Source: Bacteroidales bacterium UBA5072
GTDB lineage: Bacteria; Bacteroidota; Bacteroidia; Bacteroidales; UBA10428
DNA: 64,000 nt
Assembly: GCA_002415855.1 (NCBI GenBank)
Contig: DIAS01000162.1
Coordinates: 3,647-67,646, forward strand
Direction of reading: 5' to 3'
Part shown: positions 19,877 to 63,903 of the stretch, piece by piece
Layout: the number at the start of each line of letters is the position of its first letter
Numbering within the stretch: the stretch's first letter is position 1
Position numbers and translations under genes: made by a program
Notes under the pieces: model-generated
Seen by the model: the letters and a program-made list of their open reading frames with translations, nothing else
Databases searched by the model: none
What the model was told of the DNA's origin: nothing

Positions 19877-20641
19877 CTAAAAGGGTTTCTTAAAATATAC
19901 GGCAGATTGTGTATCAACTTCGGTCCCCTGCTCATAGCAGTCTACCACAAAACCGGCATCGGTAAACATCTTTAAAAAGTAATTCTTTTCAAACCTAACA
20001 ATTTGTCTGGGATAGGTGCATTTCATTACATAGCCTTCTGGATTCTCGGTCATATCCGGAACATTTTCCTCGATGAAATCTGTCAGGAACAAGGTTCCTC
20101 CCGGTTTGAGCAAACGGAAATATTCCCTGGCAAAAATCCGGATCTCCCAGTCAACGCTGTTCGGAAGCACGGATTGGAGATACAGGATGTCGAACGTGCC
20201 GGCTTCGAAATCGAGCCTGAAATTATCGTCCAGCCTGAGCGATCCGTTCGGATTGAATAAGATGTGCCACAGATCGATGTAATGAAATTCGCAGAAATCA
20301 TGTTTGCTGGCAATATACTTGTTGCACCAGTTTACATTTAAGATATTGGCATCCACGCCGACATATCTTTTTATCCTGCCTACTTTTTCAATCAGTCCGA
20401 TCACCGACCGTCCCGATGAACAGCCAATTTCGAGCAGCACGGTATCCTTGTTCACTTTAAGCCGGTTGGCAAACTTGTCGCCTTCACGCAACGATGAATC
20501 GAGATAGAACTGGTCATCCAAAAACTTATCCCCCATGAGCCGCATCCCAAGGGGAGGCAAAATAATGCCTTTGTACTTGCGGTAGTCTAGTTTTAGTGTC
20601 CGTTTGATCTTTCCAATAATTCTTCTGAACAGGTCTTTCAT
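19877..20641 (-). CDS. class I SAM-dependent methyltransferase (paralog A)
   Basis: SAM motif I is LLEIGCSSGRS and the post-I acidic residue lies in VGVDAN. By eye it is about half identical to the 29661..30422 product along its full length. Confidence 0.7.
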   Translation of the reverse strand: MKDLFRRIIGKIKRTLKLDYRKYKGIILPPLGMRLMGDKFLDDQFYLDSSLREGDKFANRLKVNKDTVLLEIGCSSGRSVIGLIEKVGRIKRYVGVDANILNVNWCNKYIASKHDFCEFHYIDLWHILFNPNGSLRLDDNFRLDFEAGTFDILYLQSVLPNSVDWEIRIFAREYFRLLKPGGTLFLTDFIEENVPDMTENPEGYVMKCTYPRQIVRFEKNYFLKMFTDAGFVVDCYEQGTEVDTQSAVYFKKPF

Positions 20642-20661
20642 TGCATTATTCGTTTAGGCAT

Positions 20662-20669
20662 CAAATATA
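20662..20669 (-). promoter_or_regulatory. candidate -7 box (TATATTTG) for methyltransferase A
   Basis: The minus strand reads TATATTTG, which ends 20 nt upstream of the ATG at 20641. Confidence 0.45.
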
Positions 20670-20738
20670 AATACTTTTTTAATCGGTGATTTGCCGGACA
20701 TGGAGTTTATCAACTGTTTTACCGTTGATTACGGGGTG

Positions 20739-20748
20739 TTGGTCAAAT
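20739..20748 (+). promoter_or_regulatory. TTGGTCAAAT motif forming the loop of a hairpin
   Basis: The exact 10-mer is flanked by ACGGGGTG (20731-20738) and CACCCGT (20749-20755). It lies in the intergenic DNA between family member P1 and methyltransferase A. Confidence 0.3.
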
Positions 20749-20772: not shown

Positions 20773-23049
20773 CTATTGTTTGATAACCTTGCAGGAGATT
20801 TCCTTTCCATCAGCATCAATAGCCTTCAGAATATACAGTCCGGCAGGAACGTCCTCCATCTCCAATGCAGATTTGCTGGACACCAGTATTTTATGAATGA
20901 CTGCAGCACCACTGCCGTTCAGAATCTTTAAGTCGACTGGTAAGGTAATGTCCCTGGTGATATCCAGGTAAAGAACATGATCAAAGGGACTGGGATAAAC
21001 CAGCAATGACCCGACCGGTCGCTCGATACCGGGACCTGATGATGTCAGTACTTTATAATACGTTTTAAATACATCCGAGGCAAAATTACCCGGGCTCACT
21101 GCATTGGCAACTACCTTGACCGTCACATCGCCGGTGGCAACAGGATCAATTTTAATATTCAAACCGCCAGTATGTGTTACCGTAGCATTGGTGACCTCGA
21201 TATCATCTGCTGCAAAGCCGGTAACTGACTGATGAAAATCAATCGCAGCCGTGAAACCGGCATTTACGGTATCCGTTGCGGCAGTTGTCAAAACGGGCCT
21301 TTGGTCGACAGACAGAAGGAAAACACTGCTGGCAAAAGAAGAAGGCGTGTATTTAACCCGGAAATACAAATCAGTGCCCGGTACAAGTCCGAGTGTGCTG
21401 CCTGATCCGACATTCGGAGCGGACATGTCAGCTGAAGCAGAATATTCTACCGTTACCGGAATACTCTCGGCAGTGTGTTCAATGGAATAGTTCACGGTAT
21501 AAGCCGGGGTTGCAGGACGAACAGGAATAACCAGTGTCTGAACAGCCGAAACAAATTGCGACGAAGTTGCCTTTTTCCTGAAATACAAGGTTGATCCCGG
21601 AGTAAGGGGAATGGTGCTTCCGGTTCCGGAAACAGCCGAGGTCATGCCTGCATTATTGGCATATTCACAATCCGTTGGAACGGCCGTTGCTGTGGATTCA
21701 GTCTGGTAATTTATTGTGAAAGCTGGCGTAGAGGGTCTGGCCGGGACCGTAAGATGTTGTGTAAGGGAGGCAAAAGAGCTTGCGGTTTCCTTTACCCAGA
21801 AGTAAAGATCCTGTCCGGGCGTTAAGGTGACCGGGGCACCTGTTCCGTTGACCGGAGAGGTGTAGGAGGGTGAGGTGGAGTAAGCAACCGTGGTACTTAC
21901 GTTTTCATTGGTTCTTTCATTGACATAATTAATGGTATAGGCTGGCGTGACTGCTGTTCTTGCGGGAACAACAAGATGTTGTATGTTGGATGCAAGATAG
22001 CAATCACCACTGGCTTTGGTACGGAAATAGACATCTGTTCCGGGAGTCAGATACAAATAACTACCGGTTCCGCTGACAGCGCCCGACATGTTGGAACTGT
22101 AAGAATATTCATCCGTGGCGGGAACGGCTTTATCTGTCCTCTCGTAGGAATAATTGATACCATAGGTGGGTGTCGGCAGTTGGGTGGGGGTACAGCCGAC
22201 TCCGACGGTTACGGCCAAACTCCTTGCTGTGCTTGCACCACATCCGTTGTTTGCTGTAACGTAAATCGTTCCGCTGTTACTGCCAACTGTCGTTGTTATT
22301 GATGAGGTAGTTGAGGTTCCGGTCCAGCCTGAAGGCAGGGTCCAGGTATACGATGTGGCTCCCGAAACAGCTGATATGCTGTATGTTTCTGACGCCCCTT
22401 GGGTGGGATTGGCATTTCCGGAGATGGCCCCGGGTTGTGCAGGAGTACTGCAGCCGCCGAGATAGTTGCTCCAGCCTGAGAAGTTATGACCTGAGGCAAC
22501 TGCTACAACCACAACGCGAAGCACCAGGGGAAAGTACAAGGCCTGATTTGCCCATTCCTCCGGATTATCGGTACAAAAGGGTCCATTTCCCATGTTGTGC
22601 CCGTTTACCCACAAGGGAATCCCGTACCGCCATAATTTTGACAGGTCGGTCCAGTCGATCCCTCCATTCCAGGCTGGCAGGACAGGACTACTGAACTGGG
22701 CTGATGAACCGGGCCCTGCAAGAACGCTGCTTCTGTATCCGCAACTTTCCTGCCATGTGGTACCGTCGGTACTACGGTCCGCCCATATGCAGAAATTCAA
22801 TTGAAAAGGGGCACTGGAAGGCTGGTTAATGATCTCAAAATAATAATAAAACAGCCCGTTCTGATAGTCGTATGGATAGGTCCAGTTCATGGTAGGTGCA
22901 TTTCCATGATCGTACCAGTAGCTGTAACCGCCACAGACGTCATCATCCGCATGCCAGGTATACGTTTTGTCGTGTAACAGGAATTCCTGTGACAAGATTG
23001 CCGGCATACCCGACAGGCAGATCAAAATGATGAACAGTATTTTTTTCAT
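20773..23049 (-). CDS. T9SS-secreted family member P1: N-domain, Cys-bracketed Ig/PKD-like domain, 4 'YFR' modules, Ig-like VTNA/VTNG domain and CTD
   Basis: The real start is probably the ATG at 23049 (MKKILFIILICLSGMPAILSQEF, a signal peptide), not the track start at 23160. The N-domain ends ...LRVVVVAVASGHNFSGWSNY. The four modules are PTPTYGINYSYERTD..YFRTKASGDCYLASNIQHLVVPAR and three relatives. The CTD is LLVYPSPFDHVLYLDI...GLYILKAIDADGKEISCKVIKQ. Confidence 0.85.
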   Translation of the reverse strand: MKKILFIILICLSGMPAILSQEFLLHDKTYTWHADDDVCGGYSYWYDHGNAPTMNWTYPYDYQNGLFYYYFEIINQPSSAPFQLNFCIWADRSTDGTTWQESCGYRSSVLAGPGSSAQFSSPVLPAWNGGIDWTDLSKLWRYGIPLWVNGHNMGNGPFCTDNPEEWANQALYFPLVLRVVVVAVASGHNFSGWSNYLGGCSTPAQPGAISGNANPTQGASETYSISAVSGATSYTWTLPSGWTGTSTTSSITTTVGSNSGTIYVTANNGCGASTARSLAVTVGVGCTPTQLPTPTYGINYSYERTDKAVPATDEYSYSSNMSGAVSGTGSYLYLTPGTDVYFRTKASGDCYLASNIQHLVVPARTAVTPAYTINYVNERTNENVSTTVAYSTSPSYTSPVNGTGAPVTLTPGQDLYFWVKETASSFASLTQHLTVPARPSTPAFTINYQTESTATAVPTDCEYANNAGMTSAVSGTGSTIPLTPGSTLYFRKKATSSQFVSAVQTLVIPVRPATPAYTVNYSIEHTAESIPVTVEYSASADMSAPNVGSGSTLGLVPGTDLYFRVKYTPSSFASSVFLLSVDQRPVLTTAATDTVNAGFTAAIDFHQSVTGFAADDIEVTNATVTHTGGLNIKIDPVATGDVTVKVVANAVSPGNFASDVFKTYYKVLTSSGPGIERPVGSLLVYPSPFDHVLYLDITRDITLPVDLKILNGSGAAVIHKILVSSKSALEMEDVPAGLYILKAIDADGKEISCKVIKQ

Positions 23050-23136
23050 GGCCGGAGGAGTTTTGGGTGGAATAATTGTATCAAAATAACGACTTTTTAG
23101 GATAAAGAAAAAAAAACCTGTAGCATAAATACCCTG

Positions 23137-23170
23137 ATTTTGACCCTGAATCCGGTACATTTGTCAAAAT
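23137..23170. promoter_or_regulatory. inverted pair ATTTTGAC / GTCAAAAT in a divergent promoter region
   Basis: The perfect 8-bp arms are at 23137-23144 and 23163-23170, with an 18-bp spacer. Each arm reads GTCAAAAT toward one of the two divergent genes (P1 and the GT4 gene). Confidence 0.35.
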
Positions 23171-28240: not shown

Positions 28241-29674
28241 TTGATAAAAAGGATATTTAATAACGCCACCCTGATGTCCTGGGCTTCCTATTTCGTTCAA
28301 TTTGGAAGCGTGCTTTTTATTTTTCCCTTATTGATCAAGGTATATTCACCACTTGAACAGTCATTCTGGTGGCTGCTGAACACAATCATCGGTTTGGCAA
28401 TGCTTGCCGATTCAGGTTTTGGGGCAGTATTGCTGAGAGGTGTTGCCTATTTCAGCTCCGGTGCAGATTATCTGCCACGCAACAGGGAAGAATTCGAAAA
28501 GAAACAAGATCTCCTTAGTTTCCAGCCGAATGTTAACAAGCTTGCCGACCTTCTGACAACAACAAAAAGAGTATATGCTTACCTCAACCTGGTTCTGATA
28601 GGCATGCTGATCACCCTGGGCCCGCTGATCATGTGGAACGTGATGAAACTTTCACATCACCGGATCGATTTCTGGATTGCTTACCTGTTATTGATCCCAA
28701 ATTGCATGCTGCTGATCATGACAGTGAGATGGAGATCATTTTTGCGGGGATTGGATTATGTTGCCAAGGAAGCAAGAATAAACACCTACCTTGGCGTTGC
28801 CCGGCTGACCGGTTTTATAGTGTTCCTGTCTTTTGGACTTTCTCCCGTGTACCTGATCATCTGTATGCTGGCTGAATCAGCAATCAAGTATTTTATCCTA
28901 AAAGATCTTGTTATCAGATGGTTCAGGGCAAACAACAAAATCATCACAAACAGGAATTATTTTGATAAAGATATATTCAAGTCGCTTTGGACAGCCACCT
29001 GGAAGGAAGGTCTTATCCAATGGGGTAATTACCTGTTGGCTTCGGGAAACTCAATCATTATGGCCCAGATAAGCAATGCACAGCTAATGGCCAACTTCCT
29101 GTTAACCACACGACTACTCACCATTATAGCCAGTGTTTCTGAAATAACGCTCTTCTCGAATATTCCAAGGATCTATAGCTATGCCGCAAAAAACGACCGG
29201 CATAACATGAAGATAACCGCTGCGGGATACATGTTCCTGGGCATGGCCATTATGGTAATATCCTGTTTGTTCATTATTCTTTTCGGCAATACAGCGCTGG
29301 AAATGCTCAATAAGGAATCACAGCTCGTACCCATGGGAATTCTGATCATTATGGTTCTCACCCAAATACTGGACAGTCATTCAACCTTTCATGCCGGCAT
29401 TTATATTTCTACCAACCATATTCCTTTTGTGCTGCCTTCCCTCATTTCGGGTGTTGTAATCCTGGGTGGCGGATTTCTGGTCTTGCCCAGGTATGGCCTG
29501 ATGGGAATAATAATGATGAAATTCGTGGTTCAGCTTGCCTTTAGCAATTGGTACGCAATGGTTTTATCCCTTCGTTTATTGAAATGGCCGATAAAAAACT
29601 ACTTATGGGAATTTCCGGTACTGGGCAGCAAATTCGTATATGCTAAGATCAAATCATTCTTTAACTTATCTTAG
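28241..29674 (+). CDS. polytopic membrane protein, oligosaccharide flippase (Wzx/MOP-like)
   Basis: The 477-aa protein has about 12-14 TM segments and sits in a glycan locus. The track start is a TTG; an ATG 11 codons downstream (MSWASYF) is an alternative. Confidence 0.55.
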   Translation: MIKRIFNNATLMSWASYFVQFGSVLFIFPLLIKVYSPLEQSFWWLLNTIIGLAMLADSGFGAVLLRGVAYFSSGADYLPRNREEFEKKQDLLSFQPNVNKLADLLTTTKRVYAYLNLVLIGMLITLGPLIMWNVMKLSHHRIDFWIAYLLLIPNCMLLIMTVRWRSFLRGLDYVAKEARINTYLGVARLTGFIVFLSFGLSPVYLIICMLAESAIKYFILKDLVIRWFRANNKIITNRNYFDKDIFKSLWTATWKEGLIQWGNYLLASGNSIIMAQISNAQLMANFLLTTRLLTIIASVSEITLFSNIPRIYSYAAKNDRHNMKITAAGYMFLGMAIMVISCLFIILFGNTALEMLNKESQLVPMGILIIMVLTQILDSHSTFHAGIYISTNHIPFVLPSLISGVVILGGGFLVLPRYGLMGIIMMKFVVQLAFSNWYAMVLSLRLLKWPIKNYLWEFPVLGSKFVYAKIKSFFNLS

Positions 29675-34433: not shown

Positions 34434-34462
34434 CCGGGTATTTTTCGACGGCGGAAACCAAT

Positions 34463-49345: not shown

Positions 49346-49358
49346 ATTAAATAGGACT

Positions 49359-49895
49359 ATGCGGAAGGCAATCGTGAAGATCCGGGACTTATTGCTTGCA
49401 AAAATCATCTGGCGCAGGCATGCTATCGGGAAAGGCTTTCATGCCGGGGCCCGGGTGCATTTGTGGAGCAAACATACCCTGGTAATCGGCAAGAATTTTT
49501 ACATCGGCAGAGACTCCCTGATCGAGTGTGACGCCATCATTGGGGATGATGTCATTTTTGCAAACCGGGTAGCGCTGATCGGTAGATACGATCATAATTA
49601 CCAACAGATTGGCGTACCGGTCAGAAGGGCTTCACAGATCAGGGATCCTGGTTATGCCTGGAAAGGACTGAATATGAAGGTTGTGATCGGTGACGATGTG
49701 TGGATCGGTTATGGAACGATCGTGTTAAGCGGCGTAACCATCGGCAACGGCAGTATCATTGCAGCCGGTTCGGTGGTTACCAAAGATGTGGAACCCTATA
49801 GTATTTATGCGGGATCTCCTGCAAAAAAAATAACAAACCGGTTTGACTCCGAAGAGGATACGCGAAAGCACATTTCCCTTTACTATCAGAAATAA
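49359..49895 (+). CDS. hexapeptide-repeat (left-handed beta-helix) acetyltransferase
   Basis: [47 protein letters not shown] is a classic LbH O-/N-acetyltransferase C-terminus. Confidence 0.85.
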
Positions 49896-49917
49896 GCAGA
49901 CTCAGCAGGTGCCTGGC

Positions 49918-50796
49918 TTACCTGAAAAGGCTTTTCAACCAGTGTTTGAAGAAACTTCCGAAATACAGTATGTTGCTGTAAAGGAAATAAAAATGAAAGA
50001 CAAAGGATGTGCAATGCCTTTTCCGGAATTTGTAGGCAACAGCAATGTTATAATTTGATTTAATGCTGGTGAGCGTTCGAAGAAACAGACGCCATTGAGC
50101 CTTATGTTCCAGACCTGAACTCGATTTGTCATTCCAGATTTTCAGATCAGGTAAGGCCATGAGGATAAATCCCTTTTCCTTTGCACGGAGAAAGAAATCA
50201 CAATCACCATAATACTGCGGGAAATTTTTTTGGTCGAACAATCCTACCTGCCTGAAGACCTCAACGGGAATCAGCGTGCCCATACCTCCAGTCCAGTCAA
50301 CCTGAACAGGATGATTGAATTCAGCCGAATCGGTCATACCATAACCGTTCATTTTAAGCTTGCCGGTCGTGGGATTGAAGAATGCCCCCATTCCAAAGAG
50401 CACATCCGGTTTTGCCAGGAAGTAAACTTTTGAGGCTATGATTGTTTTGCTGTTATATTTATCAACATTTTTTATCAGGTTGTTGAAAAAATTCTCAGCA
50501 CAAATAGTATCGTGGTTCCAGAGTAAAACATACTGATATTCCTGATCAGCAAGGGCATACCGAACACCCAGGTTTATCCCTCCGCTCCACCACAGGTTAC
50601 CGTCGCCTTTGAGGACAATAATACCGGGATAATTCAAGTTTAACCATTCAGCAGTGCCGTCATTGGAATTGTCATCGGCGACGATGATCGTGAACTTCCG
50701 GTGCTCAATTGCATTGATCTGTGCCATGATGGGAGGCAAAGAATTCTGAAGATATTTAAGTCCGTTGAAAACAGGAATAACAATGGCGATGCTCAT
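49918..50796 (-). CDS. glycosyltransferase family 2
   Basis: MSIAIVIPVFNGLKYLQNSLP...IIVADDNSNDGT...LLWNHD shows GT-A motifs. Confidence 0.85.
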   Translation of the reverse strand: MSIAIVIPVFNGLKYLQNSLPPIMAQINAIEHRKFTIIVADDNSNDGTAEWLNLNYPGIIVLKGDGNLWWSGGINLGVRYALADQEYQYVLLWNHDTICAENFFNNLIKNVDKYNSKTIIASKVYFLAKPDVLFGMGAFFNPTTGKLKMNGYGMTDSAEFNHPVQVDWTGGMGTLIPVEVFRQVGLFDQKNFPQYYGDCDFFLRAKEKGFILMALPDLKIWNDKSSSGLEHKAQWRLFLRTLTSIKSNYNIAVAYKFRKRHCTSFVFHFYFLYSNILYFGSFFKHWLKSLFR

Positions 50797-50996: not shown

Positions 50997-53966
50997 ATGG
51001 AGAAGTACATAAATATGATGCGGGCAAAGTTAAATAAAGAAAAGTTTCAACCAAGCAGTTTTTTCAACACACTCTTTCTGTTAGTTCTTGTTATTCTGAT
51101 CAATGGATTAATGCCCGTTGCGGCACAAAATAGTGAGGTAGTTGTATTTTCGGAAAACTGGAATGACAGTTATTTGTTGGAGCCCTGGAAGCCCAACAAT
51201 AGTGCAGGCTGGTTTCTTACATCACCTAAAAACCAGTTGGTTGCACAGGAGAATCGTGGTAATTCTCTGCGGGTAAATTTCGACGCAGGAGACCTGGGTT
51301 CGGCATCGGGTATGGGTAATTACCGGATATACCTTGATTCCATGTATAAGGAGCTTTATATCAGCTGGGAATACTGGCTTACAGCAGATTTCGATTTTGG
51401 GTATGCTGACGGAAATGGCGGAGGCAAATTCTTTGGTGGCGTAAGCGGCGGTAACATGTATGATATTCCGCGGACAGCAATAGATACGGCTGATGGCTGG
51501 GCGTACTTCATGATGTTCCAGAACGGCAGCTATTATACCTACCCTTATTTTTACAATGCTGAATATTGGGGCGGATATCCGGCCGGTTATAAAATTACAG
51601 CTTTAACGCGAGGTGAATGGAGAGAAATTACCGTACGGCTGAAGGTTAATGATCCGCAAGTGGCGAACGGGATTGTTGAGGTTTTCGATAACGGTAAGCT
51701 TGTATTTCAGCAGACAAATGCCCAGATGACATCTCCAACACATCCTGAATGGCTTATCGACGCACTGTATCTGAACAACTTCTTCGGAGGCACCAGCGCC
51801 TGTCCCAAAGCGCAGTATGCCATGTATGACAACCTTGTTGCCTGGTATTACCCCAAAGGAAGCAGTATGTACAGGTCAGGCGTCAGTGAATCGGGAAGAA
51901 CACTATATGCTCCCAGGGTTTCGAATTATCATCCGAAAGTGCCGAATAAATTCACGGAAACTGTTTATTCCGATGCTGCCGGAAAGATATCCAGTCATTG
52001 CGGATTTGAAATGCCTATCTATCATGGCGATGATTATGAAACTTCCACCATTGAAATCAGTAATGCATCCAGAATATCCATTAATGTTTCCGAGTTTACC
52101 TATGACAAGGGCCAAAGTTACACCGGATATAAGCAAATACTTAATATTTATCAGGGAAAAGGAAGCAACAGAACCCTGGTAAAATCTTTCATGTATGGAC
52201 AGAACACCTCTGTTCCATCGCAAATAGAAATATCAGGAAATACGGCCGAAATCGAATGGCAGGCAGGCAATGGGCAGCACAGAGGTTTTACATTGACCTA
52301 CACCTCCAATGGTACCGGCTCCGGGAAGAACTTTACGTGTGGAAAATTTACGGCCACGCAGCGGGGTGCAAATCAAACCACCACACAAACAGAACCTACG
52401 GCATACCCGCCTTATACCCCTTCAAATCTGCAGGTTACGTCGGCGACCACCACTTCGATAGGTATAAAATGGAATGACAATTCAGCCATTGAAACCGCTT
52501 ATGAAATTGAGCGCATGGGACCAGCCGATCAAAGAAAGACAACCCGGGTTGGCGCCAATATAACTACTTATAACGATACCGGGCTGGAATCCAATGCAAC
52601 TTATACATACTGGGTCAGAGCCTATAACACAACCGGCGGGTATTCGGCCTATACAGCGTCAGTTCAGGCCAAAACACAATCCCCTGCGGTGCCCCTGAAT
52701 GCACCAAGCAGCCTGACAAGTACTGGATATACCGAAAAGAGCATCACCATACAATGGAGTGACAATTCCAATAATGAAAACGGATTTATGATTACCCGAA
52801 CGCTGGGCATGAATCCGGACAGCAGTGTCAACATCATTGTTGGAGCCAATGAGACCGGTTTTACCGATGACAGTCTTGCATCCAATACAACCTATATTTA
52901 CACAGTTAAAGCTGTTAACAATAACGGAACCTCGGCTTCCAGTAACAAGAATGTGGCGGCAACGTTATCGATCATTGAAACACAACGTGTTAAGGAAGGT
53001 CTGATCGCTTATTATAATTTCGGATATGATCCTGATTATATTGTTCACGACTTATCAGGATACGGTAATCCTTTAAACCTTAAGATATTGCAGCCATCCG
53101 CAGTTGCCTGGAATGAAAATAACCGGATTGAGATTATCTCAAACACGGCTATCGTATCCGCTTCCTCTGCCAGTAAAATAACCTCAGAGATCAAAAGAAC
53201 CGGGGAAATTACCATGGAATGCTGGATAAGACCTTCAGACCCTGACTTATCAGCAAGCTCCCGGGTGATATCACTGGCTATCAATGATGCAGAGGTAGGT
53301 TTCGTGCTCGATCAGCATTACAGTGATGTGGATGATGGAAAATCATTGAGTTACAGTGTCCGGCTTCAAACAGAGTCAACCAATAAATCAGGGTTCCCCG
53401 AAATTTCCCCGTTGAACAGTATTGCCTATCTCAATATGCAGCATGTGGTATACATACGGGATACACTCGGCAATGAATCCCTTTATGTAAACGGGGAAAA
53501 GTCAGCCGAAGGATTTCGTCCCAGCAACTTCAGCACCTGGAGCAATAACTTTTACCTGAGGCTGGGTAATGAAAATGACCTTACCCACCCCTGGAAAGGA
53601 ACGTTTTATTCCATGGCCATTTATAACAAAGCCTTATCGGTTGGTGAAATCAGTAAGAATTATGCCCTTGGACCCTGTGATAACATCAAGACTGATGGCC
53701 AGGAATTTACAATCAATGTTTACCCCAATCCTATCACCGATGTTGCAAACATTGAGATTGTGCCGGTCAATTTGCAGGATTATATTCCACTTACCACCAT
53801 ACGGTTACTGGACATGTATGGTAAAGTCCATTATCAGACCACGCTGTTTAATCCGGATGACGGGTATCATACGACCATGGATTTTGGCAGGTATTCCAAG
53901 GGTATTTATTTTCTGCAAATAGTATCCGGAAATGATCAGTCAGCTACCAAGCTTATTGTTCAGTAG
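50997..53966 (+). CDS. T9SS-secreted protein: unassigned N-terminal beta-rich domains, 2 FN3 domains, a LamG domain and a CTD
   Basis: The signal/anchor is FFNTLFLLVLVILINGLMPVAAQ. The FN3 domains read PSNLQVTSATTTSIGIKWNDNS..YEIER and PSSLTSTGYTEKSITIQWSDNSNNENGFMITR. The LamG-type end is WKGTFYSMAIYNKALSVGEISKNY. The CTD is INVYPNPITDVANIEI...GIYFLQIVSGNDQSATKLIVQ. Confidence 0.8.
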   Translation: MEKYINMMRAKLNKEKFQPSSFFNTLFLLVLVILINGLMPVAAQNSEVVVFSENWNDSYLLEPWKPNNSAGWFLTSPKNQLVAQENRGNSLRVNFDAGDLGSASGMGNYRIYLDSMYKELYISWEYWLTADFDFGYADGNGGGKFFGGVSGGNMYDIPRTAIDTADGWAYFMMFQNGSYYTYPYFYNAEYWGGYPAGYKITALTRGEWREITVRLKVNDPQVANGIVEVFDNGKLVFQQTNAQMTSPTHPEWLIDALYLNNFFGGTSACPKAQYAMYDNLVAWYYPKGSSMYRSGVSESGRTLYAPRVSNYHPKVPNKFTETVYSDAAGKISSHCGFEMPIYHGDDYETSTIEISNASRISINVSEFTYDKGQSYTGYKQILNIYQGKGSNRTLVKSFMYGQNTSVPSQIEISGNTAEIEWQAGNGQHRGFTLTYTSNGTGSGKNFTCGKFTATQRGANQTTTQTEPTAYPPYTPSNLQVTSATTTSIGIKWNDNSAIETAYEIERMGPADQRKTTRVGANITTYNDTGLESNATYTYWVRAYNTTGGYSAYTASVQAKTQSPAVPLNAPSSLTSTGYTEKSITIQWSDNSNNENGFMITRTLGMNPDSSVNIIVGANETGFTDDSLASNTTYIYTVKAVNNNGTSASSNKNVAATLSIIETQRVKEGLIAYYNFGYDPDYIVHDLSGYGNPLNLKILQPSAVAWNENNRIEIISNTAIVSASSASKITSEIKRTGEITMECWIRPSDPDLSASSRVISLAINDAEVGFVLDQHYSDVDDGKSLSYSVRLQTESTNKSGFPEISPLNSIAYLNMQHVVYIRDTLGNESLYVNGEKSAEGFRPSNFSTWSNNFYLRLGNENDLTHPWKGTFYSMAIYNKALSVGEISKNYALGPCDNIKTDGQEFTINVYPNPITDVANIEIVPVNLQDYIPLTTIRLLDMYGKVHYQTTLFNPDDGYHTTMDFGRYSKGIYFLQIVSGNDQSATKLIVQ

Positions 53967-54098: not shown

Positions 54099-54836
54099 AT
54101 GGATTTTGTTAATTGCTTGGGATTTAATGTTTTCCCCGGTAATCTGCAAGAGATTACGCTCAGTAAAGAAAACAAGATTCTGAATACAATAAGTCCCATC
54201 TCCTATGGTATATCTACCAGGGATAAACTCTTCAGGCAGGCCCTAAAGTCGTCTGATATACTGGTCCTGGACGGAGTCTATTTTGGTTTGAGCAGTTTGT
54301 TTCTGCATGGAAGGATCATGACGGTAAACCAGGGCCCTGACGTATTTTATCATTTTATGAAGAGAATGAATGCCGTGCATGGCAAAGTCTTTCTGCTGGG
54401 AGCTTCCAATTCCACGCTTGAAAAAATGAAGCTTAGGGCACTGGTAGATTATCCGAATGCAGAGGTTTCGTTCTTCTCTCCTCCTTATAAGGACGAGTTT
54501 ACCGATGAGGATAACCGTATCATGCTGGAAAAGATAAACAGTTTTGAGCCGGATATTCTGTTTGTCAGCATGACATGTCCCAAGCAGGAAAAATGGGCCT
54601 TCAAGAACAAAAACAATATCAAGGCATGCCTGACGTGCGACATAGGTGCCGTTTTTGATTGGTACGCCGGAATAAAACCCATTGCTCCTATTTGGTGGAA
54701 GCTGCGGCTGGCCTGGTTAAAAAGGCTCATCGACAGACCCGAAATGATCAAACGATATCCGAATATTGTGCTGTTTTTCTGGCATTTATTTCTGGCTGTT
54801 ATGGGAATCAAGAAATACAGGAATGGTAACTTCTAA
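54099..54836 (+). CDS. WecB/TagA/CpsF family (GT26) glycosyltransferase, WecG-like
   Basis: VFLLGASNSTLEKMK...FFSPPYKDEFTDEDNRIMLEKINSFEPDILFVSMTCPKQEKW...DIGAVFDWYAG is the GT26 core (G.P.QE.W). Confidence 0.85.
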   Translation: MDFVNCLGFNVFPGNLQEITLSKENKILNTISPISYGISTRDKLFRQALKSSDILVLDGVYFGLSSLFLHGRIMTVNQGPDVFYHFMKRMNAVHGKVFLLGASNSTLEKMKLRALVDYPNAEVSFFSPPYKDEFTDEDNRIMLEKINSFEPDILFVSMTCPKQEKWAFKNKNNIKACLTCDIGAVFDWYAGIKPIAPIWWKLRLAWLKRLIDRPEMIKRYPNIVLFFWHLFLAVMGIKKYRNGNF

Positions 54837-55198: not shown

Positions 55199-56419
55199 AT
55201 GATTCCCTATCTCAATTATTCCTCACAAGTAATCTCCTTATGGGTTTTGGCAATCCTGGGATTTGCTTTTGCATTGATACTCACCTATGTTTCAATCCCA
55301 TCACTGGTTACTATTGCTAAAAGAAAAAGCCTTCACGCCACTCCCAATGGACGTACTTCTCACACCGGTTCAACTCCGATACTCGGAGGTGTAGCCATAT
55401 TTAACGGTTTCATTTTATCCACTGCCATCGTAGCCGGTACTTTCTTCAAGTTTGACCTGGTATATGTCATTTCAGGGCTCATCATCCTTTTTATTGCTGG
55501 ACTGAAGGATGATATACTCGAGATTCATCCGCGCAGCAAACTTGCTGCAGAAATTACGGCCACGCTGCTGATTGCATTGCTGGCAGATATCAGGATCAGT
55601 GATTTTCACGGCTTGTTTGGTTTGCATGAAATACCTTACCTGCTTAGTATCCTTATTACAGTATTCGTATTTATCGTTATTATCAACGGATTTAATCTGA
55701 TTGACGGAATTGATGGACTTGCTGCCGGGGTGACCATACTTACATCCTCAGTCCTTGGCATCTGGTTCTGGAGAACCGGTAACGTAGCCTATACCATCAT
55801 GAGCTTTGCTCTTGCCGGATCACTTGTAGCCTTCTTCAGGTACAATGTTTTCGGCAAAGAAAATAAGATCTTTATGGGTGATACAGGATCGCTTATCATT
55901 GGCCTTGTCATGTCAATCCTGACGACCCGTTTTCTACAGTTGGATCTGCATGCCGAAGGTACCATGGCCATTCAGTCTGCACCAGCTGTTACTGTTGGTA
56001 TTCTTATCATTCCACTTTTTGACACGCTTCGTGTTTTTTCCATCCGGATCAGTCAGGGCAAATCTCCTTTTTCTGCTGACCGGCAGCATTTGCACCATCG
56101 TCTTTTGCAGCTCGGCCTTACACACTTTCAGACCACCCTCACGCTTCTTGCAGTAAACGTAGCCTTTATTTTAATGTGCTATGCGCTTCAGAATGTTGGG
56201 ATCCTTTGGCTCATGATCATTATTCTGGCGACTGCACTGATGTTATCACGGACCCTGATGTATTTTGTACACAAAAAGACCGCAAGGGAGATTATTGATA
56301 CCAGATTTGTTACCGCCGAGAATCTCGATACTGTATACGGCAAGAGAAAGACCGAGAGGTTGCAGCCTAAGGAACCAACGGTCAAGGAAACCGCCAAAAC
56401 AACTACAGTTGTACCTTAA
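55199..56419 (+). CDS. MraY/WecA family polyprenyl-phosphate N-acetylhexosamine-1-phosphate transferase (copy 1)
   Basis: The motifs are GRTSHTGSTPILGG, AGLKDD, NGFNLIDGIDGLAAG, FMGDTGSL and SPFSADRQHLHHRLL, with about 11 TM segments. Confidence 0.87.
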   Translation: MIPYLNYSSQVISLWVLAILGFAFALILTYVSIPSLVTIAKRKSLHATPNGRTSHTGSTPILGGVAIFNGFILSTAIVAGTFFKFDLVYVISGLIILFIAGLKDDILEIHPRSKLAAEITATLLIALLADIRISDFHGLFGLHEIPYLLSILITVFVFIVIINGFNLIDGIDGLAAGVTILTSSVLGIWFWRTGNVAYTIMSFALAGSLVAFFRYNVFGKENKIFMGDTGSLIIGLVMSILTTRFLQLDLHAEGTMAIQSAPAVTVGILIIPLFDTLRVFSIRISQGKSPFSADRQHLHHRLLQLGLTHFQTTLTLLAVNVAFILMCYALQNVGILWLMIIILATALMLSRTLMYFVHKKTAREIIDTRFVTAENLDTVYGKRKTERLQPKEPTVKETAKTTTVVP

Positions 56420-59002: not shown

Positions 59003-61459
59003 ATGAAAGAAGGTCAGGATTTATTTGCGAGCAATTTAGATTATAAGAAGCTGTTTCAAAAACTGTATTCTTACAGGAGAGCATACATAACCCTTGTTTT
59101 GGTTTTCCTTTTTGCGGCATTCCTCATGAATCGTTATTCAACCGTTAAGTACCGGAACACCACGATCTTAAATCTCAGTGATAAGAACAATGCGAGTTCT
59201 TTCAATTCCTCTGAAGATCTTTTTCAAAGTTTTGGATTGTTTAACACCAAGGAAAATATTGATAATGAACTGGAATTGCTGAAGTCCTTCACGCTCATCA
59301 AGAAGGTTATTTCCGAGACCGATATGGGAGTCACTTATTATGCTTATAGAAATACACCGCTTTCAGAATTTCTTTCGAAAACACCCCTTGTAAGAAAAAC
59401 TGAGTTATATACCCTTTCGCCGATTGAGGTTATTATTGATCAATCAGTTCCGCAGGCTTCGCTTGTGAACTTTCATGTTACCATATTAAATGATAACGAA
59501 TTTACGCTCAATGCTGATGGTGAAGATGTACCGCTTTATAATTACATCGATGACCAGATCGTATCCTATGTTGACAAGCTTACCTTCCGGCAGCGGTTCA
59601 AATTTGGTGATGAAATCAAAACGAGGTATTTCAACTTCCGGATACAAAAAACCAAAAACTTCTCGAAAGATTTTACCGATAATAACAACCTTTGTTTTTA
59701 TTTAAACAATATCAATTATCTCACATTGCAGTTTCAGGATGCGCTGAAGACCGAAACCATTAATGAAAGAGCCACACTGATCAAGATTTCGGTTACAGGT
59801 TCCAATCCTCATATGATTATTGATTTCCTGAATAATCTCACCGCTGCTTATCTGGGTAAAAGCCTTGAAAGAAAGAACAAAACAGCCCTCAGCACAATAG
59901 ATTTTATTGATTCACAAATTTCAGAAGTAGCAGATTCCCTGAATTATGCCGAATCATCCTTAAAGACCTTCCGCTCTGCACAGGGAGTGATGGACCTTAA
60001 TTTTCAGGGTCAGCAGGTATTTGAGCAGTTAGGCAAACTAGAAAATGACCGTGCGGCACTACAGGTGCAAAAGAGGTACTATGAAAGTTTAAGCACTTAT
60101 CTGGCTACGAATTCAGAAATATCGGATGTCATGGCACCCTCTTCGATGAACGTAGTTGATCCCATTCTTACCGGCCTCGTAACACAATTGATTGCTTTGA
60201 ACTCCGAGCGGGCCAGTTTGCTGAAGAATTCGACCAACCAGCAGAATCTTTATCTTTCTGATATCAACGTACGAATTGACAACATCAGGCAAACCATCAG
60301 AGAGACTGTAAAGAATAATCTCAATACAATCAACATGTCTCTTAATGAGATCAATTACAGAATGAACAGGGCCTCCGGTCAGATCGCCCAGATGCCAAAA
60401 ACTGAACTTCAATTGCGGGGTATTGAACGCAAGTTCAAACTCAGCGACGCAATGTATACCTTCCTGCTGCAGAAGCGTTCGGAAGCGCAAATAGCCAGGG
60501 CCTCCAGCATGCCCGATTATGAAGTGGTTGATCCTGCTATCCTGGCCATGTCGCGCGAGGTATCTCCCAAAAGAACGCTGAATTATTTGGGCGCCCTGGT
60601 TCTGGCATTTTTACTTCCTACGTTATTGATACTCATGAAAGACTTCATGAACAACAATATCACGGATGCCGATGAGGTTGAGCATCTAACCAATTACCCG
60701 ATACTGGGTCGGATTTTCCATAATTTCCACCGGTCCAAACAGATTGTCAATGATCACCCGAATTCATCGGTTACAGAATCGTTCCGGGCCGCCCGCACAA
60801 ATTTCCAATTTTTCTCCGAGGGCGGAAAGCGCCAGGTATTGTTGATCACCTCGTCAACCAGTGGTGAAGGAAAGACATTCTGTTCCATTAACCTGGGAAC
60901 GGTATTTGCTTTGAGCGGTCACAGGACCGTGTTGTTGGAGTTCGATCTCCGTAGGCCGAAGATCCACCAGGAATTTGGCTCGAGCAATATCATAGGGATC
61001 AGTTCATTTTTAATTGACAAAGCCAATATCGAGGATATCGTTCTGCCCACGCACATCGAAAACCTTGATCTGATCTCCGCAGGTCCGGCAGCTCCCAATC
61101 CGGCCGAATTGATCAACTCCGAACGTACAGGTGAGCTTATTGACAAGCTTAAGGAAATGTATGATTACATAATTATCGACTCAGCTCCGGCAGGTATTTT
61201 AACTGAAACCATGCTGCTGATGAAGCATACTGACCTGAATATTATGGTTGCCAGGATGGATAAGACCAACAGGGAGGCCTTCAAGACCGTTCTCAAATCA
61301 TTTGAAAACAGCCGGATCAATAATATATCTGTATTAATCAACGACCTGAACGTTAGGCGGGATTCCTACAAATATGGGTATGATAATAAATATTATACCG
61401 ATGACAGAAATGTCGGACTCCTTTCCAGACTTTTCCGTCGGAATAAGAAAGCTTCCTAA
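59003..61459 (+). CDS. polysaccharide co-polymerase / BY-tyrosine kinase (Wzc/GumC-like)
   Basis: There is an N-terminal TM segment, a long coiled periplasmic region and a second TM segment. The kinase domain has Walker A ITSSTSGEGKTF, A' VLLEFDLRRP and B IIIDSAP. The C-terminal Tyr cluster is SYKYGYDNKYYTDD. Confidence 0.87.
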   Translation: MKEGQDLFASNLDYKKLFQKLYSYRRAYITLVLVFLFAAFLMNRYSTVKYRNTTILNLSDKNNASSFNSSEDLFQSFGLFNTKENIDNELELLKSFTLIKKVISETDMGVTYYAYRNTPLSEFLSKTPLVRKTELYTLSPIEVIIDQSVPQASLVNFHVTILNDNEFTLNADGEDVPLYNYIDDQIVSYVDKLTFRQRFKFGDEIKTRYFNFRIQKTKNFSKDFTDNNNLCFYLNNINYLTLQFQDALKTETINERATLIKISVTGSNPHMIIDFLNNLTAAYLGKSLERKNKTALSTIDFIDSQISEVADSLNYAESSLKTFRSAQGVMDLNFQGQQVFEQLGKLENDRAALQVQKRYYESLSTYLATNSEISDVMAPSSMNVVDPILTGLVTQLIALNSERASLLKNSTNQQNLYLSDINVRIDNIRQTIRETVKNNLNTINMSLNEINYRMNRASGQIAQMPKTELQLRGIERKFKLSDAMYTFLLQKRSEAQIARASSMPDYEVVDPAILAMSREVSPKRTLNYLGALVLAFLLPTLLILMKDFMNNNITDADEVEHLTNYPILGRIFHNFHRSKQIVNDHPNSSVTESFRAARTNFQFFSEGGKRQVLLITSSTSGEGKTFCSINLGTVFALSGHRTVLLEFDLRRPKIHQEFGSSNIIGISSFLIDKANIEDIVLPTHIENLDLISAGPAAPNPAELINSERTGELIDKLKEMYDYIIIDSAPAGILTETMLLMKHTDLNIMVARMDKTNREAFKTVLKSFENSRINNISVLINDLNVRRDSYKYGYDNKYYTDDRNVGLLSRLFRRNKKAS

Positions 61460-61540
61460 TTCCTCATCCTGAATGATGTATGCAACAAAGAGGCGTGTAT
61501 TTTTCCGATATCTTCAGCAAATAAATAATCACGATATAAA

Positions 61541-62749
61541 ATGGAAAATTCAAAAGTATGCGTACTGGGCCTGGGTTATATAGGATTGCCGACGGCAGCC
61601 CTGCTGGCCACCAAAGGTTACAAAGTTCATGGTGTGGATGTCAAGCCTGATGTTGTTGAGACCATTAACAAAGGTTTGATTCATATCGTTGAACCGGAAC
61701 TGGATGCTTTTGTTAAATCAGCCGTGCAATCAGGAAACTTAAAGGCTTCCCTAAAACCTGATTTTGCAGATATTTTTATTATTACTGTACCCACCCCGGT
61801 TGAGGAAAACAATGATCCTGACATCTCATTTGTTATGGAGGCCGCAAATGCAATTATTCCCTATGTAAAGGAAGGCAATTACGTCATACTTGAATCTACA
61901 TCACCTATTGGAACTACGGAAAAACTGGTAAAGCTTTTTAAGGAAAAAGGCCTCGACACCGATGGTCTTCATTTCGCTTATTCACCTGAGCGTGTGCTTC
62001 CCGGACAAACCATGCGGGAACTCGTTGAAAACGATCGCATAGTCGGGGGTATAACCAAAGAAGCAGCCTTGCATGTAGCTTTGTTTTATGAATCATTTGT
62101 TCAGGGGAATGTGATCATCACCAATTCCAGAACGGCAGAAATGTCAAAGCTTACAGAGAATGCATGCCGCGATGTGAATATAGCTTTTGCCAACGAATTG
62201 TCCATTTTATGCGACAAGTTTGGGATTGATGTCTGGGAACTGATCAGCCTGGCCAATCGTCACCCGCGCATTAATATCCTAAAACCCGGCAGTGGTGTAG
62301 GCGGTCACTGCATTGCCATTGATCCCTGGTTTATTGTGGCTGAAGGAAAAGAAGATGCCCGGATAATCCGTACCGCCAGAGAAATCAACAACAACAAGCC
62401 CTTATGGGTAATAAACAAGGTTGAAAAAGCGGCAGCTGAATTCAGGCAAAAGAACAACAGGGATCCAAAAGTTGCCTGTATGGGTATAGCCTTCAAGCCA
62501 AACATTGATGACCTGCGGGAATCACCCTCGTTGTTCATCGTCAATAGTCTGATCAAAAGAGGATTGGATATTCTTGTGGCTGAGCCCAATGTTAAGAAGC
62601 ATAATAATCTGAAACTCACTGAATATCAGGAGGCTATTAAACAAGCAGATATCATACTCTTCCTTGTAGCCCACAAAGAATTCAAGACGGTTCTGGTACA
62701 AGAAGGAAAAACAGTCCTTGATATTTGTGGTATCAGGAGTAATTATTAA
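61541..62749 (+). CDS. wecC: UDP-N-acetyl-D-mannosamine dehydrogenase
   Basis: KVCVLGLGYIGLPTAALLATKGYKVHGVD, ...GGHCIAIDPWF... and the ~400-aa UDP-sugar dehydrogenase layout support the call. Adjacency to wecB favours ManNAc specificity. Confidence 0.82.
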   Translation: MENSKVCVLGLGYIGLPTAALLATKGYKVHGVDVKPDVVETINKGLIHIVEPELDAFVKSAVQSGNLKASLKPDFADIFIITVPTPVEENNDPDISFVMEAANAIIPYVKEGNYVILESTSPIGTTEKLVKLFKEKGLDTDGLHFAYSPERVLPGQTMRELVENDRIVGGITKEAALHVALFYESFVQGNVIITNSRTAEMSKLTENACRDVNIAFANELSILCDKFGIDVWELISLANRHPRINILKPGSGVGGHCIAIDPWFIVAEGKEDARIIRTAREINNNKPLWVINKVEKAAAEFRQKNNRDPKVACMGIAFKPNIDDLRESPSLFIVNSLIKRGLDILVAEPNVKKHNNLKLTEYQEAIKQADIILFLVAHKEFKTVLVQEGKTVLDICGIRSNY

Positions 62750-62757
62750 GCAGTTTC

Positions 62758-63903
62758 ATGAAGAAGATACTCATTGTTTTTGGAACAAGGCCCGAGGCTA
62801 TCAAAATGGCCCCGCTGGTTAAAGAATTTCAAAAACATCCTGATGCTTTCCTTACCAAAATATGTATAACCGCGCAGCACCGTGAGATGCTGGATCAGGT
62901 CCTGTCGATATTCGAAATTGTACCGGATTATGACCTTAACATCATGAAAGCCGGCCAGGATCTTTACGATATAACAAGCCGCGTTTTGATGGGCATGCGT
63001 GACGTATTGCAGGAATACAAACCTGACCTTCTCCTTGTTCATGGTGATACCACAACTTCATCCACCGCGGCCCTGGCTTCATTCTATCAGCAGATTCCTG
63101 TTGCACATATTGAAGCAGGACTCAGAACCGGCAATATATTTGCTCCCTGGCCCGAAGAGATGAACCGGATGCTAACACGCTGCCTGACGCAATTTCATTT
63201 TTCACCTACACCAACGTCGAGGGAGAACCTGTTAAAGGAGAATGTAAAAGCAGAAAACATCATCATTACCGGTAATACTGTAATTGACGCCCTCCATCTG
63301 ATACTTGAGAAGATACGGCTGAATCAGTCCCTGCATGATTATATTGCTAAGATCCTAACTGAAAAAGGCATTGAGATCAAAAAAGACAGAAAGATCATTC
63401 TTATCACCGGTCATCGCAGGGAAAACTTTGGACCCGGTTTTATCAACATATGCAATGCCATCAGGGAGATCGCCGTTTCACATCCTGATGTGGATCTTAT
63501 ATATCCCGTGCATTTGAATCCCAACGTGCAAAAGCCCGTCCATGACATACTCAATGGCCAGCCTAACATACTTCTGACTGATCCTTTGGAATATCTGCCA
63601 TTCATTTACCTGATGGAAAGATCGGACATCATCCTCACAGACAGCGGAGGTATTCAGGAGGAAGCGCCCAGCCTGGGTAAACCCGTACTGGTCATGCGCG
63701 ACACCACCGAACGTCCGGAGGCTGTTGAGGCAGGCACCGTAAAACTGGTAGGTACAGATAAGGAAAAGATCGTTGAAGAGTTAACCCTGCTCCTCGAGAG
63801 ATCAGCTTATTACCAGGCAATGGCAAAAGCACATAACCCTTACGGGGATGGTCTGGCATCAAAAAGGATAGTGGACTTTTTCATCAGCCATTTCTCCCTC
63901 TGA
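62758..63903 (+). CDS. wecB: UDP-N-acetylglucosamine 2-epimerase (non-hydrolysing)
   Basis: MKKILIVFGTRPEAIKMAPL...LLVHGDTTTS...HIEAGLRT...TDSGGIQEEAPSLGKPVLVMRDTTERPE are canonical WecB/MnaA motifs. Confidence 0.92.
   Translation: MKKILIVFGTRPEAIKMAPLVKEFQKHPDAFLTKICITAQHREMLDQVLSIFEIVPDYDLNIMKAGQDLYDITSRVLMGMRDVLQEYKPDLLLVHGDTTTSSTAALASFYQQIPVAHIEAGLRTGNIFAPWPEEMNRMLTRCLTQFHFSPTPTSRENLLKENVKAENIIITGNTVIDALHLILEKIRLNQSLHDYIAKILTEKGIEIKKDRKIILITGHRRENFGPGFINICNAIREIAVSHPDVDLIYPVHLNPNVQKPVHDILNGQPNILLTDPLEYLPFIYLMERSDIILTDSGGIQEEAPSLGKPVLVMRDTTERPEAVEAGTVKLVGTDKEKIVEELTLLLERSAYYQAMAKAHNPYGDGLASKRIVDFFISHFSL

Follow-up and report, generated by a model that had tools for sequence, protein, structure and literature searches.

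A Bacteroidales polysaccharide locus interleaved with genes for type IX-secreted proteins: a candidate capsule or exopolysaccharide system with its own lyase and lectin-like proteins

Why do genes for secreted surface proteins stand between the genes of a polysaccharide pathway? The question is raised by a stretch of 64,000 nucleotides from Bacteroidales bacterium UBA5072 (assembly GCA_002415855.1, contig DIAS01000162.1, positions 3,647 to 67,646 of the forward strand), referred to here in its full length as the window, which carries ∼37 genes. From 15565 to 63903, the end of the last complete gene, nearly all genes encode either a component of a glycan pathway or a protein with the C-terminal domain (CTD) of type IX secretion system (T9SS) cargo. 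The original prediction took the glycan to be the attachment or binding partner of the co-encoded cargo, following Porphyromonas gingivalis, in which T9SS cargo is covalently attached to an anionic lipopolysaccharide (A-LPS). The best reading of the region, at a probability of roughly 0.5, is that of a locus specific to a clade of Bacteroidales and directing the synthesis of an exported capsule or exopolysaccharide (EPS), which contains N-acetylmannosaminuronic acid (ManNAcA) and is accompanied by its own T9SS-secreted accessory proteins, a putative lyase and several lectin-like proteins.

In this proposal, the T9SS would export the cargo, and the general cargo-attachment route of the organism would keep the C-termini on the cell surface. 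The distal jelly-roll and laminin G-like (LamG) domains would bind the uronic-acid-containing polymer of the locus at various heights and thereby retain or organize it, while the lyase, a protein with a domain of polysaccharide lyase family 14 (PL14), would trim or release it. The polymer itself would be methylated and acylated by the co-encoded transferases.

Secreted proteins, polysaccharide and export route

The window encodes nine proteins with type A CTDs, each domain running to the last residue, in agreement with the number originally counted (cutoffs, 23 bits for TIGR04183 and 27 for PF18962; scores and coordinates are given in Table 1). The glycan locus contains eight of the nine, again as proposed. 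The ninth, at 5786-12289, lies outside, with the housekeeping genes for Kup and RsmE standing between it and the locus; it is no kin of the six-member family described below (the P family) and shows an fn3 similarity to the PL14 protein. An AlphaFold2 model of the 297-residue protein at 30587-31480 (pLDDT of 82.8) places its CTD close to that of NucA in the T9SS translocon complex (8glk_D), with a target-normalized TM-score of 0.81, a root mean square deviation of 2.5 Å, and 32% identity. The N-termini of the cargo proteins, as seen in the translations, are hydrophobic and share a conserved A/G-E-F junction. Genes for SprA, PorV, PorU, PorZ, and GldKLMN are absent from the 64-kb window.

The eight cargo genes of the locus fall into three protein families, with tandem duplication having enlarged one of them, and are not eight independent events. 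The window by itself is therefore weak evidence for a linkage beyond chance. Two families have one member each, a protein with He_PIG repeats and a LamG domain and the PL14 protein, which likewise contains a LamG domain. The third is the P family, whose members the original prediction had listed as P1 to P6 and which are indeed six true paralogues. They share a plan of a putative signal peptide, an N-terminal domain of ∼185 residues (the N-domain) with a jelly-roll fold, 0 to 14 immunoglobulin (Ig)-like repeats of ∼68 to 73 residues, and a type A CTD.

Neither Pfam nor NCBIfam gives a match to the N-domain, whose copies in the window paralogues share 31 to 56% identity. A profile built from the eight window N-domains finds 778 representative clusters at an E value of ≤1e-3 and 356 at ≤1e-10 among 1.84 billion representatives, which indicates that the family is real and moderately widespread. 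Among the 150 best-scoring representatives, 110 are likely complete. The domain is N-terminal in 87 of these 110 and hence distal to the C-terminal anchor; a C-terminal CTD is found in 65, and the remaining 45 have no detectable CTD. Conserved positions are W39, P42, G48, E55, E84, G97, W110, D117, P162, F178, and G180, numbered on the 191-residue segment encoded at 30659-31231. Modelled alone from 41 sequences, the N-domain forms a jelly-roll β-sandwich with a pLDDT of 94.1 and a pTM of 0.89. The best PDB matches of a two-domain model are the sugar-binding jelly roll and Ig domains of glycoside hydrolase family 2 β-glucuronidases (E value of ∼5e-6, with low TM-scores). In distant members, the N-domain occurs in fusion with LamG, FG-GAP, GDSL esterase, F5/8 type C, carbohydrate-binding module (CBM) families CBM96 and CBM6, PKD, and Ig domains, the usual company of carbohydrate-binding and carbohydrate-active modules. 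Relatives of the domain also occur beyond the Bacteroidota, in two metagenome-assembled genomes (MAGs) of Deltaproteobacteria (loci L016 and L017; L numbers denote loci with homologues of window proteins), in one of an Opitutaceae bacterium (L018), and likewise in L027. The neighbors in these four loci are not homologous to genes of the window, and no CTD match is seen in the two that were checked for it (L018 and L027), which indicates that the N-domain functions independently of the T9SS. Its features mark it as a candidate for a new domain family. A descent from the jelly roll of PL14 enzymes was considered and rejected, as hhalign gives this relationship a probability of 0.4%.

The number of Ig-like repeats rises from 0 through 4, 5, 5, and 7 to 14 among the six P proteins. 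These graded stalks, together with the distal position of the jelly roll, raise the possibility that the proteins tether the glycan, which would invert the A-LPS paradigm. The more specific version of this idea, in which the stalked jelly roll serves as a lectin for retaining and layering the capsule of the cell itself and the PL14 lyase releases the polymer, is less likely than not.

WecC and WecB, encoded at the right end of the window, both score above the equivalog cutoffs (534 bits for NF008286, cutoff of 459, and 507 bits for TIGR00236, cutoff of 210) and would together provide UDP-ManNAcA, a source of hexuronic acid. The WecG-family glycosyltransferase encoded upstream (54099..54836) is a probable ManNAc(A) transferase. 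The PL14 domain of the secreted protein reaches 37.6 bits against PF21294 (cutoff of 27) and spans positions 4 to 214 of the 215-position profile, which is the full length. Since WecB and WecC supply ManNAcA and the lyase domain is complete and above its cutoff, a plausible substrate for the enzyme is at hand. The presence of the jelly-roll and LamG modules beside a lyase favors the glycan as a noncovalent partner or substrate of the cargo.

The polymer is predicted to leave the cell by a capsule or EPS route. The combination of a Wzc-type co-polymerase with kinase domain (PCP-2a) and an outer membrane polysaccharide export (OPX) protein points to capsule or EPS export rather than to ligation onto lipid A-core. 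The OPX protein aligns with the whole EpsY model NF041843 (positions 23 to 210 of 211; E value of 8e-10), with a score far under the equivalog cutoff. At 259 residues, its predicted sequence leaves no room for the C-terminal pore helix of Wza, and it looks like a class 3 OPX protein, which requires a separate β-barrel partner. Such short OPX proteins without an outer membrane pore domain have been described and depend on a β-barrel protein (PMC9601211, PMC12819527). Myxococcus EpsY belongs to this class; in difference to that system, a gene for the β-barrel partner is not visible in the window. The flippase homologue matches the Wzx model NF041503 with an E value of 4e-61 over positions 2 to 422 of 429, and its score of 207 bits is below the curated subfamily cutoff of 300. 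Besides these components, the pathway comprises two WecA-type initiators, the WecG-family transferase, six other glycosyltransferases, two methyltransferases, and two acyltransferases.

The original prediction had spoken of a complete Wzx/Wzy/Wza/Wzc pathway. Wzx, OPX/Wza, Wzc, and the initiators are found, and the Wzy component is assigned by context only. The candidate is a polytopic membrane protein of 408 residues whose best Pfam match is a marginal one to Wzy_C (E value of 0.015 in a search to E values of ≤10). A profile of its homologues yields a single marginal match among PDB sequences, to the ligase WaaL (7tpg; E value of 0.58). The family contains at least 75 clusters, and all 75 homologues are without a name and without a Pfam domain. 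Conserved residues include arginines (R149, R153, R198, and R262), a GNG motif at 283 to 285, and D310. The gene adjoins a Wzx homologue, or lies one gene away from it, in L006, L008, L010, L014, and L023, and it stands beside Wzc in L024; because of these positions, and since it encodes the only free polytopic protein, it is called Wzy-like here. A Wzc/OPX pathway needs a polymerase, and the 408-residue protein, as the sole polytopic candidate left in the locus, would fill this role, which makes it a candidate Wzy-type polymerase. No WaaL is recognizable in the locus. For the 408-residue protein, Pfam, the names of homologues, and profile comparison with the PDB give no more than the marginal matches to the shared Wzy_C/WaaL superfamily and do not tell Wzy from WaaL.

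Linkage of cargo and glycan genes in related loci

Strong evidence for a linkage beyond chance comes from the relatives of the locus. A genome scan with an alignment of the N-domain (A1) reaches closer relatives only, and a scan of metagenomes returns three loci, one of them long, and is uninformative. The exact and near relatives all stem from sediment metagenomes and MAGs of uncultured Bacteroidales. Across nine Bacteroidales lineages (the window, L006, L008/9, L010, L011, L014, L015, L019, and L023), genes of the P family occur in clusters with Wzx, Wzy-like, and glycosyltransferase genes or with WbaP, Wza, and Wzc, at identities down to ∼33%.

Three of these lineages (L006, L008/9, and L010) retain the gene order of the window, with the He_PIG/LamG-CTD gene followed by the Wzy-like gene, the Wzx gene, a methyltransferase gene on the minus strand, four or five P genes, and Acyl_transf_3. 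Identity to the window proteins is 75 to 79% for Wzx, 56 to 64% for the Wzy-like protein, and 47 to 69% for the P proteins. In the more distant L011, L014, L015, and L019, with 33 to 47% identity of the P members, the gene order is reshuffled. L014 shows the order GT2, Wzx, an unannotated gene, P, and Wzy-like, with the P gene thus lying between the Wzx and Wzy-like homologues. L015 begins with a fragment of a CTD protein that matches the fn3 region alone of the window PL14-CTD protein and continues with GT2, Wzx, GT4, GT2, and two P genes. The P gene of L011 stands beside WbaP, Wza, and Wzc, and in L019, with the order GT1, PL14, and P, a PL14 gene adjoins the P gene.

The same association is recovered from the side of the glycan genes. 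A reverse search from the Wzy-like protein leads, through a homologue with 45% identity, to L023, which holds a P member (N-domain E value of 9e-27) as well as a PL14-fn3-LamG-CTD protein. The order in this locus is a C-methyltransferase gene at the edge (57% identical to that of the window), epimerases, a 2-epimerase, WecG, the P-family CTD protein, GT2, Wzx, the Wzy-like protein, glycosyltransferases, and the PL14-fn3-LamG-CTD protein. The C-methyltransferase, GT2, Wzx, and GT1-like genes are orthologous to those of the window, and the P gene lies between WecG and GT2. The comparison proposed at the outset, whether cargo and glycan genes travel together in relatives, thus has a positive answer that includes the PL14-CTD protein of L023, and this joint travel makes a functional link likely. 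What is linked to glycan genes is one Bacteroidales subclade of the family and not the N-domain as a whole.

The preferred reading has to be held against several results that weigh on the other side. A P homologue with 42 to 46% identity (L012) is located among peptidase and sensor genes outside any glycan locus, and the distant members L020, L021, and L022 are found outside glycan loci as well. In the related glycan locus L024, whose Wzy-like protein shows 35% identity, CTD genes are absent within 10 kb. Linkage is judged from individual loci rather than from whole genomes, the level at which a background frequency of CTD genes near glycan genes would be set. The genes of the locus do not form a single operon, as they occupy both strands in several transcription units and a strong terminator-like hairpin (26821-26851) follows the He_PIG gene; co-regulation does not follow from the arrangement. 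The isolated N-domain has no significant structural neighbor in the PDB (the best Foldseek matches, at 2.6e-3, are viral capsid jelly rolls, and CBM30 gives a TM-score of 0.41), and a profile search of PDB sequences with the N-domain finds nothing. The term lectin-like is accordingly a guess at the level of the modelled fold, and the domain cannot be assigned to a specific CBM or enzyme family. Glycan binding, lyase activity, and surface retention of the cargo are all predictions for uncultured sediment Bacteroidales, made from sequence.

A lineage-dependent feature of the related loci concerns acylation. L006, L008/9, and L010 contain two inserted pairs of genes missing from the window, each composed of a membrane-bound O-acyltransferase (MBOAT) and a partner of ∼306 to 365 residues. 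The pairs flank the Wzy-like and Wzx genes (790-3152 and 6420-8943 in L006; 759-3129 and 6341-8870 in L008), and MBOAT/partner pairs are also present in L024 (16230-21147). In their place, the window carries Acyl_transf_3 and the hexapeptide transferase. Acylation of the polymer seems to vary by lineage while the P array stays put.

Alternative explanations and known systems

The covalent form of the original prediction would have a PorU-type sortase join the C-terminus of each cargo protein, after removal of the CTD, to the glycan of this locus, as with A-LPS in P. gingivalis. All eight proteins carry type A CTDs, the class that is anchored to lipopolysaccharide (LPS) in P. gingivalis and Cytophaga hutchinsonii (PMC13086638, PMC12860637), the glycan is predicted to be anionic through ManNAcA, the 408-residue protein resembles nothing but the Wzy_C/WaaL superfamily, in two marginal matches, and the cargo-glycan linkage is conserved. 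The anchor of P. gingivalis is built from the SAGA linking sugar, made by WbpA, WbpB, WbpE, WbpD, and WbpS together with VimA and VimE; it further involves the transferases WbaP, GtfC, GtfF, and VimF, as well as Wzy, WzzP, and WaaL, and the sortase PorU carries out the attachment (PMC13086638). Anchoring of type A cargo in C. hutchinsonii requires WaaL and ordinary LPS (PMC12860637). The likeness of the present locus to these systems consists of type A CTD cargo and a Wzx/Wzy-type glycan with an acidic sugar. Counterparts of WbpA, B, E, D, and S or VimA, E, and F (PMC13086638), and likewise WzzP, WaaL, and PorU, are not identifiable in the locus, which has Wzc and OPX instead, that is, export as capsule or EPS and not WaaL ligation to lipid A-core. 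Its sole sugar dehydrogenase is a WecC equivalog and not WbpA, and its chain-length regulator is no simple Wzz but a Wzc that bears a kinase domain. A Gfo/Idh/MocA oxidoreductase, a DegT aminotransferase, and a Vim-type protein are absent among the 37 window genes scanned and could sit elsewhere in the genome. If the 408-residue protein were a WaaL, the pathway would be left without a polymerase. In both species studied, all type A cargo shares the general LPS as its anchor, the genes of which do not lie next to those of the cargo (PMC13086638, PMC12860637), so that a private anchor for eight neighboring proteins would be unprecedented. The lack of a CTD in 45 of the 110 likely complete N-domain representatives, and in the non-Bacteroidota loci where checked, also argues against this mode of attachment. 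A covalent anchor is therefore distinctly improbable. The proposal of a binding partner holds better, since a noncovalent partner or substrate is what the jelly roll, the LamG domains, and the lyase suggest.

The cargo proteins might also be outward-facing adhesins or enzymes for external ligands that leave the cell's own glycan unbound and share its island through joint exchange, or because stalk length is matched to capsule thickness. The graded stalks with the N-domain at the distal tip would suit such a role, as would the quick divergence of the paralogous N-domains, which is expected of exposed variable proteins. The distribution of distant members outside glycan loci, in contexts with CBM9, sulfatase, or CBM6, and the several separate transcription units point the same way. 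The explanation is nevertheless unlikely, as a lyase and LamG proteins accompany the module from lineage to lineage, which is easier to understand if the cell's own glycan is targeted, and as P genes lie inside the core of the loci (in L014 between the Wzx and Wzy-like genes, in L023 between WecG and GT2) and not at the edge only. The absence of any functional link, with a variable surface region gathering duplicated CTD genes by chance and the relatives being alike by common descent, is improbable. Six of the eight genes did arise by tandem duplication in one family, the four most similar loci (the window, L006, L008, and L010) possibly belong to one genus, and some family members are located elsewhere. 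The association survives the reshuffling of gene order at 33 to 47% identity in L011, L014, L015, L019, and L023, though, involves three separate cargo families, and is recovered independently from the glycan-gene side.

A fourth explanation, that an oligosaccharide of the locus decorates the co-encoded cargo by protein O-glycosylation, like the S-layer glycoproteins of Tannerella, is very improbable. Protein O-glycan loci of Bacteroidota resemble the present one in containing Wzx, several glycosyltransferases, methyltransferases, and WecB/WecC. The Wzy_C superfamily, to which the 408-residue protein is remotely similar, also covers O-oligosaccharyltransferases. Wzc and OPX, on the other hand, imply export of a polymer across the outer membrane, and the cargo is not enriched in the sequon of Bacteroidota O-glycosylation, D(S/T)(A/I/L/V/M/T) (PMC8550257). 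The six P proteins contain 0 to 3 copies each and 8 in total, compared to ∼18 in composition-matched shuffles (z of −0.4 to −1.8), and across the cargo the number is 0 to 4 per protein, at or under the shuffled expectation.

The exported polymer with its own secreted lyase and lectin-like proteins has a functional parallel in Vibrio cholerae. The matrix proteins RbmA, RbmC, and Bap1 interact with Vibrio polysaccharide (VPS), RbmB is a VPS lyase, and the rbm cluster lies alongside the vps genes (PMC11637428, PMC11695861). This cluster is a well-known exception to the statement in the original prediction that secreted structural proteins are not interspersed between the sugar genes of such loci. 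The likeness is one of functional class and not of homology, namely, polysaccharide-interacting secreted proteins and a dedicated lyase encoded together with the genes for an anionic EPS. The rbm genes are situated between vps-I and vps-II; in the present locus, genes for proteins with LamG, jelly-roll, or Ig-repeat modules and for a PL14 lyase stand among those for Wzx, the Wzy-like protein, Wzc, and OPX. No sequence relationship to Rbm proteins is detected, secretion proceeds by the T9SS with type A CTDs and not by the type II secretion system, the lyase is of family PL14, the cargo includes six paralogues with graded stalks, and the functions are predicted ones. Other EPS and capsule operons with their own processing enzyme or retention lectin are known from AlgL of alginate, PslG of Psl, and Wzi of the Escherichia coli group 1 capsule. 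These resemble the present locus in joining a lyase to a uronic-acid polymer or putative lectin-type proteins to a Wza/Wzc-type pathway. They differ from it in that their proteins are periplasmic or outer membrane ones and not T9SS cargo; there is no Wzi homology here, and eight secreted proteins stand against one.

The general principle that an EPS locus encodes matrix proteins and a lyase of its own is already known. New are the T9SS version of the Bacteroidales, the jelly-roll family, and the Wzy-like family. A full-text literature search with partial coverage of the literature returned no description of T9SS cargo genes conserved inside Wzx/Wzy/Wzc loci. If the proposal is correct, the locus would provide a genetically defined system for the joint assembly of T9SS cargo and exported polysaccharide into one Bacteroidota coat, a process whose study has so far been confined almost entirely to A-LPS anchoring in P. 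gingivalis. The proposal predicts that the N-domain and LamG proteins bind, and that the PL14 protein cleaves, a ManNAcA-containing polymer. Both the ∼185-residue jelly-roll domain and the Wzy-like membrane protein are uncharacterized families without a Pfam model and are worth describing.

Gene layout and further observations

The features of the window are listed in Table 1. The left end of the glycan locus is at 15565, with the nucleotide-sugar genes, ∼4.3 kb further left than the start at 19877 assumed in the original prediction, and the locus may extend rightward past the end of the window.

Table 1. Genes and gene groups of the window, with strand, domain content and supporting evidence
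Position	Strand	Feature	Domains, evidence and relatives
Left part of window		ABC transporter	
5786..12289	-	T9SS cargo protein, 2167 residues	N-terminal DUF4886, then ∼20 fn3 repeats, CTD; PF18962 28.8 bits
15565..19806	+	Five nucleotide-sugar genes	NDP-sugar epimerase/dehydratase, RmlC-type 3,5-epimerase, C-methyltransferase, Glc-1-P cytidylyltransferase-like, PIG-L deacetylase; Pfam
19877..20641	-	S-Adenosylmethionine (SAM) methyltransferase MT-a	48% identical to MT-b
20773..23160	-	P-family member	Putative signal peptide, N-domain, PKD_6, 4 repeats, CTD; TIGR04183 30.2 bits
23244..24407	+	GT4-family glycosyltransferase	Orthologues in L010, L015
24657..26804	+	He_PIG/LamG-CTD protein	He_PIG ×4, Laminin_G_3, type A CTD; TIGR04183 24.8 bits; orthologues in same position in L006, L008, L010
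26996..28222	+	Polytopic membrane protein, 408 residues, Wzy-type polymerase candidate	∼8 or more hydrophobic segments; context
28241..29674	+	Wzx-like O-unit flippase	NF041503
29661..30422	-	SAM methyltransferase MT-b	Kept beside P array in L006, L008, L010
30587..31480	+	Minimal P-family member	Putative signal peptide, N-domain, CTD; 0 repeats; TIGR04183 43.6 bits
31629..34433	+	P-family member	Two N-domains, 5 repeats (2+3), CTD; TIGR04183 43.3 bits
34539..37793	+	P-family member	Two N-domains, 7 repeats (2+5), CTD; TIGR04183 46.5 bits
38029..40323	+	P-family member	One N-domain, 5 repeats, CTD; TIGR04183 41.4 bits
40441..44703	+	P-family member	One N-domain, 14 repeats, CTD; TIGR04183 46.9 bits
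44721..45731	-	Acyl_transf_3 membrane O-acyltransferase	Equivalent place after P array in L008
45805..46725	-	GT2	
47146..48243	+	GT1	
48326..49345	+	GT1-like	
49359..49895	+	Hexapeptide acyltransferase	
49918..50796	-	GT2	
50997..53966	+	PL14-CTD protein	PL14 lyase domain, fn3 ×2, Laminin_G_3, type A CTD; Pfam; TIGR04183 33.9 bits
54099..54836	+	WecG/TagA/CpsF-family glycosyltransferase	TIGR00696 85.8 bits (cutoff, 69)
55199..56419	+	WecA/MraY-family initiating phosphoglycosyl transferase, first of tandem pair	PF00953
56827..58044	+	WecA/MraY-family initiating phosphoglycosyl transferase, second of tandem pair	PF00953
58205..58984	+	OPX/Wza-type export protein, 259 residues	Poly_export, SLBB
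59003..61459	+	Wzc-type co-polymerase/tyrosine autokinase (PCP-2a)	Wzz, GNVR, AAA_31; TIGR01007 161 bits (cutoff, 108)
61541..63903	+	WecC (UDP-ManNAc dehydrogenase) and WecB (UDP-GlcNAc 2-epimerase)	NF008286; TIGR00236

The gene set at the left end suggests that a C-methyl-branched or deoxy CDP-sugar enters the glycan, as judged from the predicted enzymes; the Glc-1-P cytidylyltransferase-like protein scores 218 bits with TIGR02623, under the cutoff. The block of glycosyltransferase and modification genes at 45805..50796 has orthologues in L014, L015, L023, and L024. The two WecA-type transferases match TIGR02380 (E value of 5e-47) and share 76% protein identity with each other; their genes are separated by a spacer of 407 bp and show ∼70% DNA identity over 300 nucleotides. 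Two initiators in one locus could serve two alternative first sugars or could reflect a recent duplication. The paralogous methyltransferases MT-a and MT-b each lie directly left of a P-family gene and may act on the glycan or on the proteins. For the P member at 20773..23160, the longest open reading frame likely begins too early, as a typical signal peptide (MKKILFII...) starts from Met38, near 23049; public gene calls keep the 795-residue form.

A scan of the window for sigma-70 promoters and terminators stays at chance expectation, and a comparison with Rfam gives no match in the window. Overall, the window shows no enrichment of the Bacteroidetes -7 motif TAnnTTTG (39 copies compared to 50 expected). 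About a dozen copies lie just upstream of gene starts, among them those at 20641(-), 23244, 26996, 30422(-), 30587, 38029, 46725(-), 54099, and 55199, and these suggest several transcription units. The G+C content of the CTD-protein genes (0.47 to 0.50) exceeds that of the neighboring glycan genes (0.38 to 0.44) at 6001-12000 and 32001-44000, which may stem from amino acid composition rather than from foreign origin.

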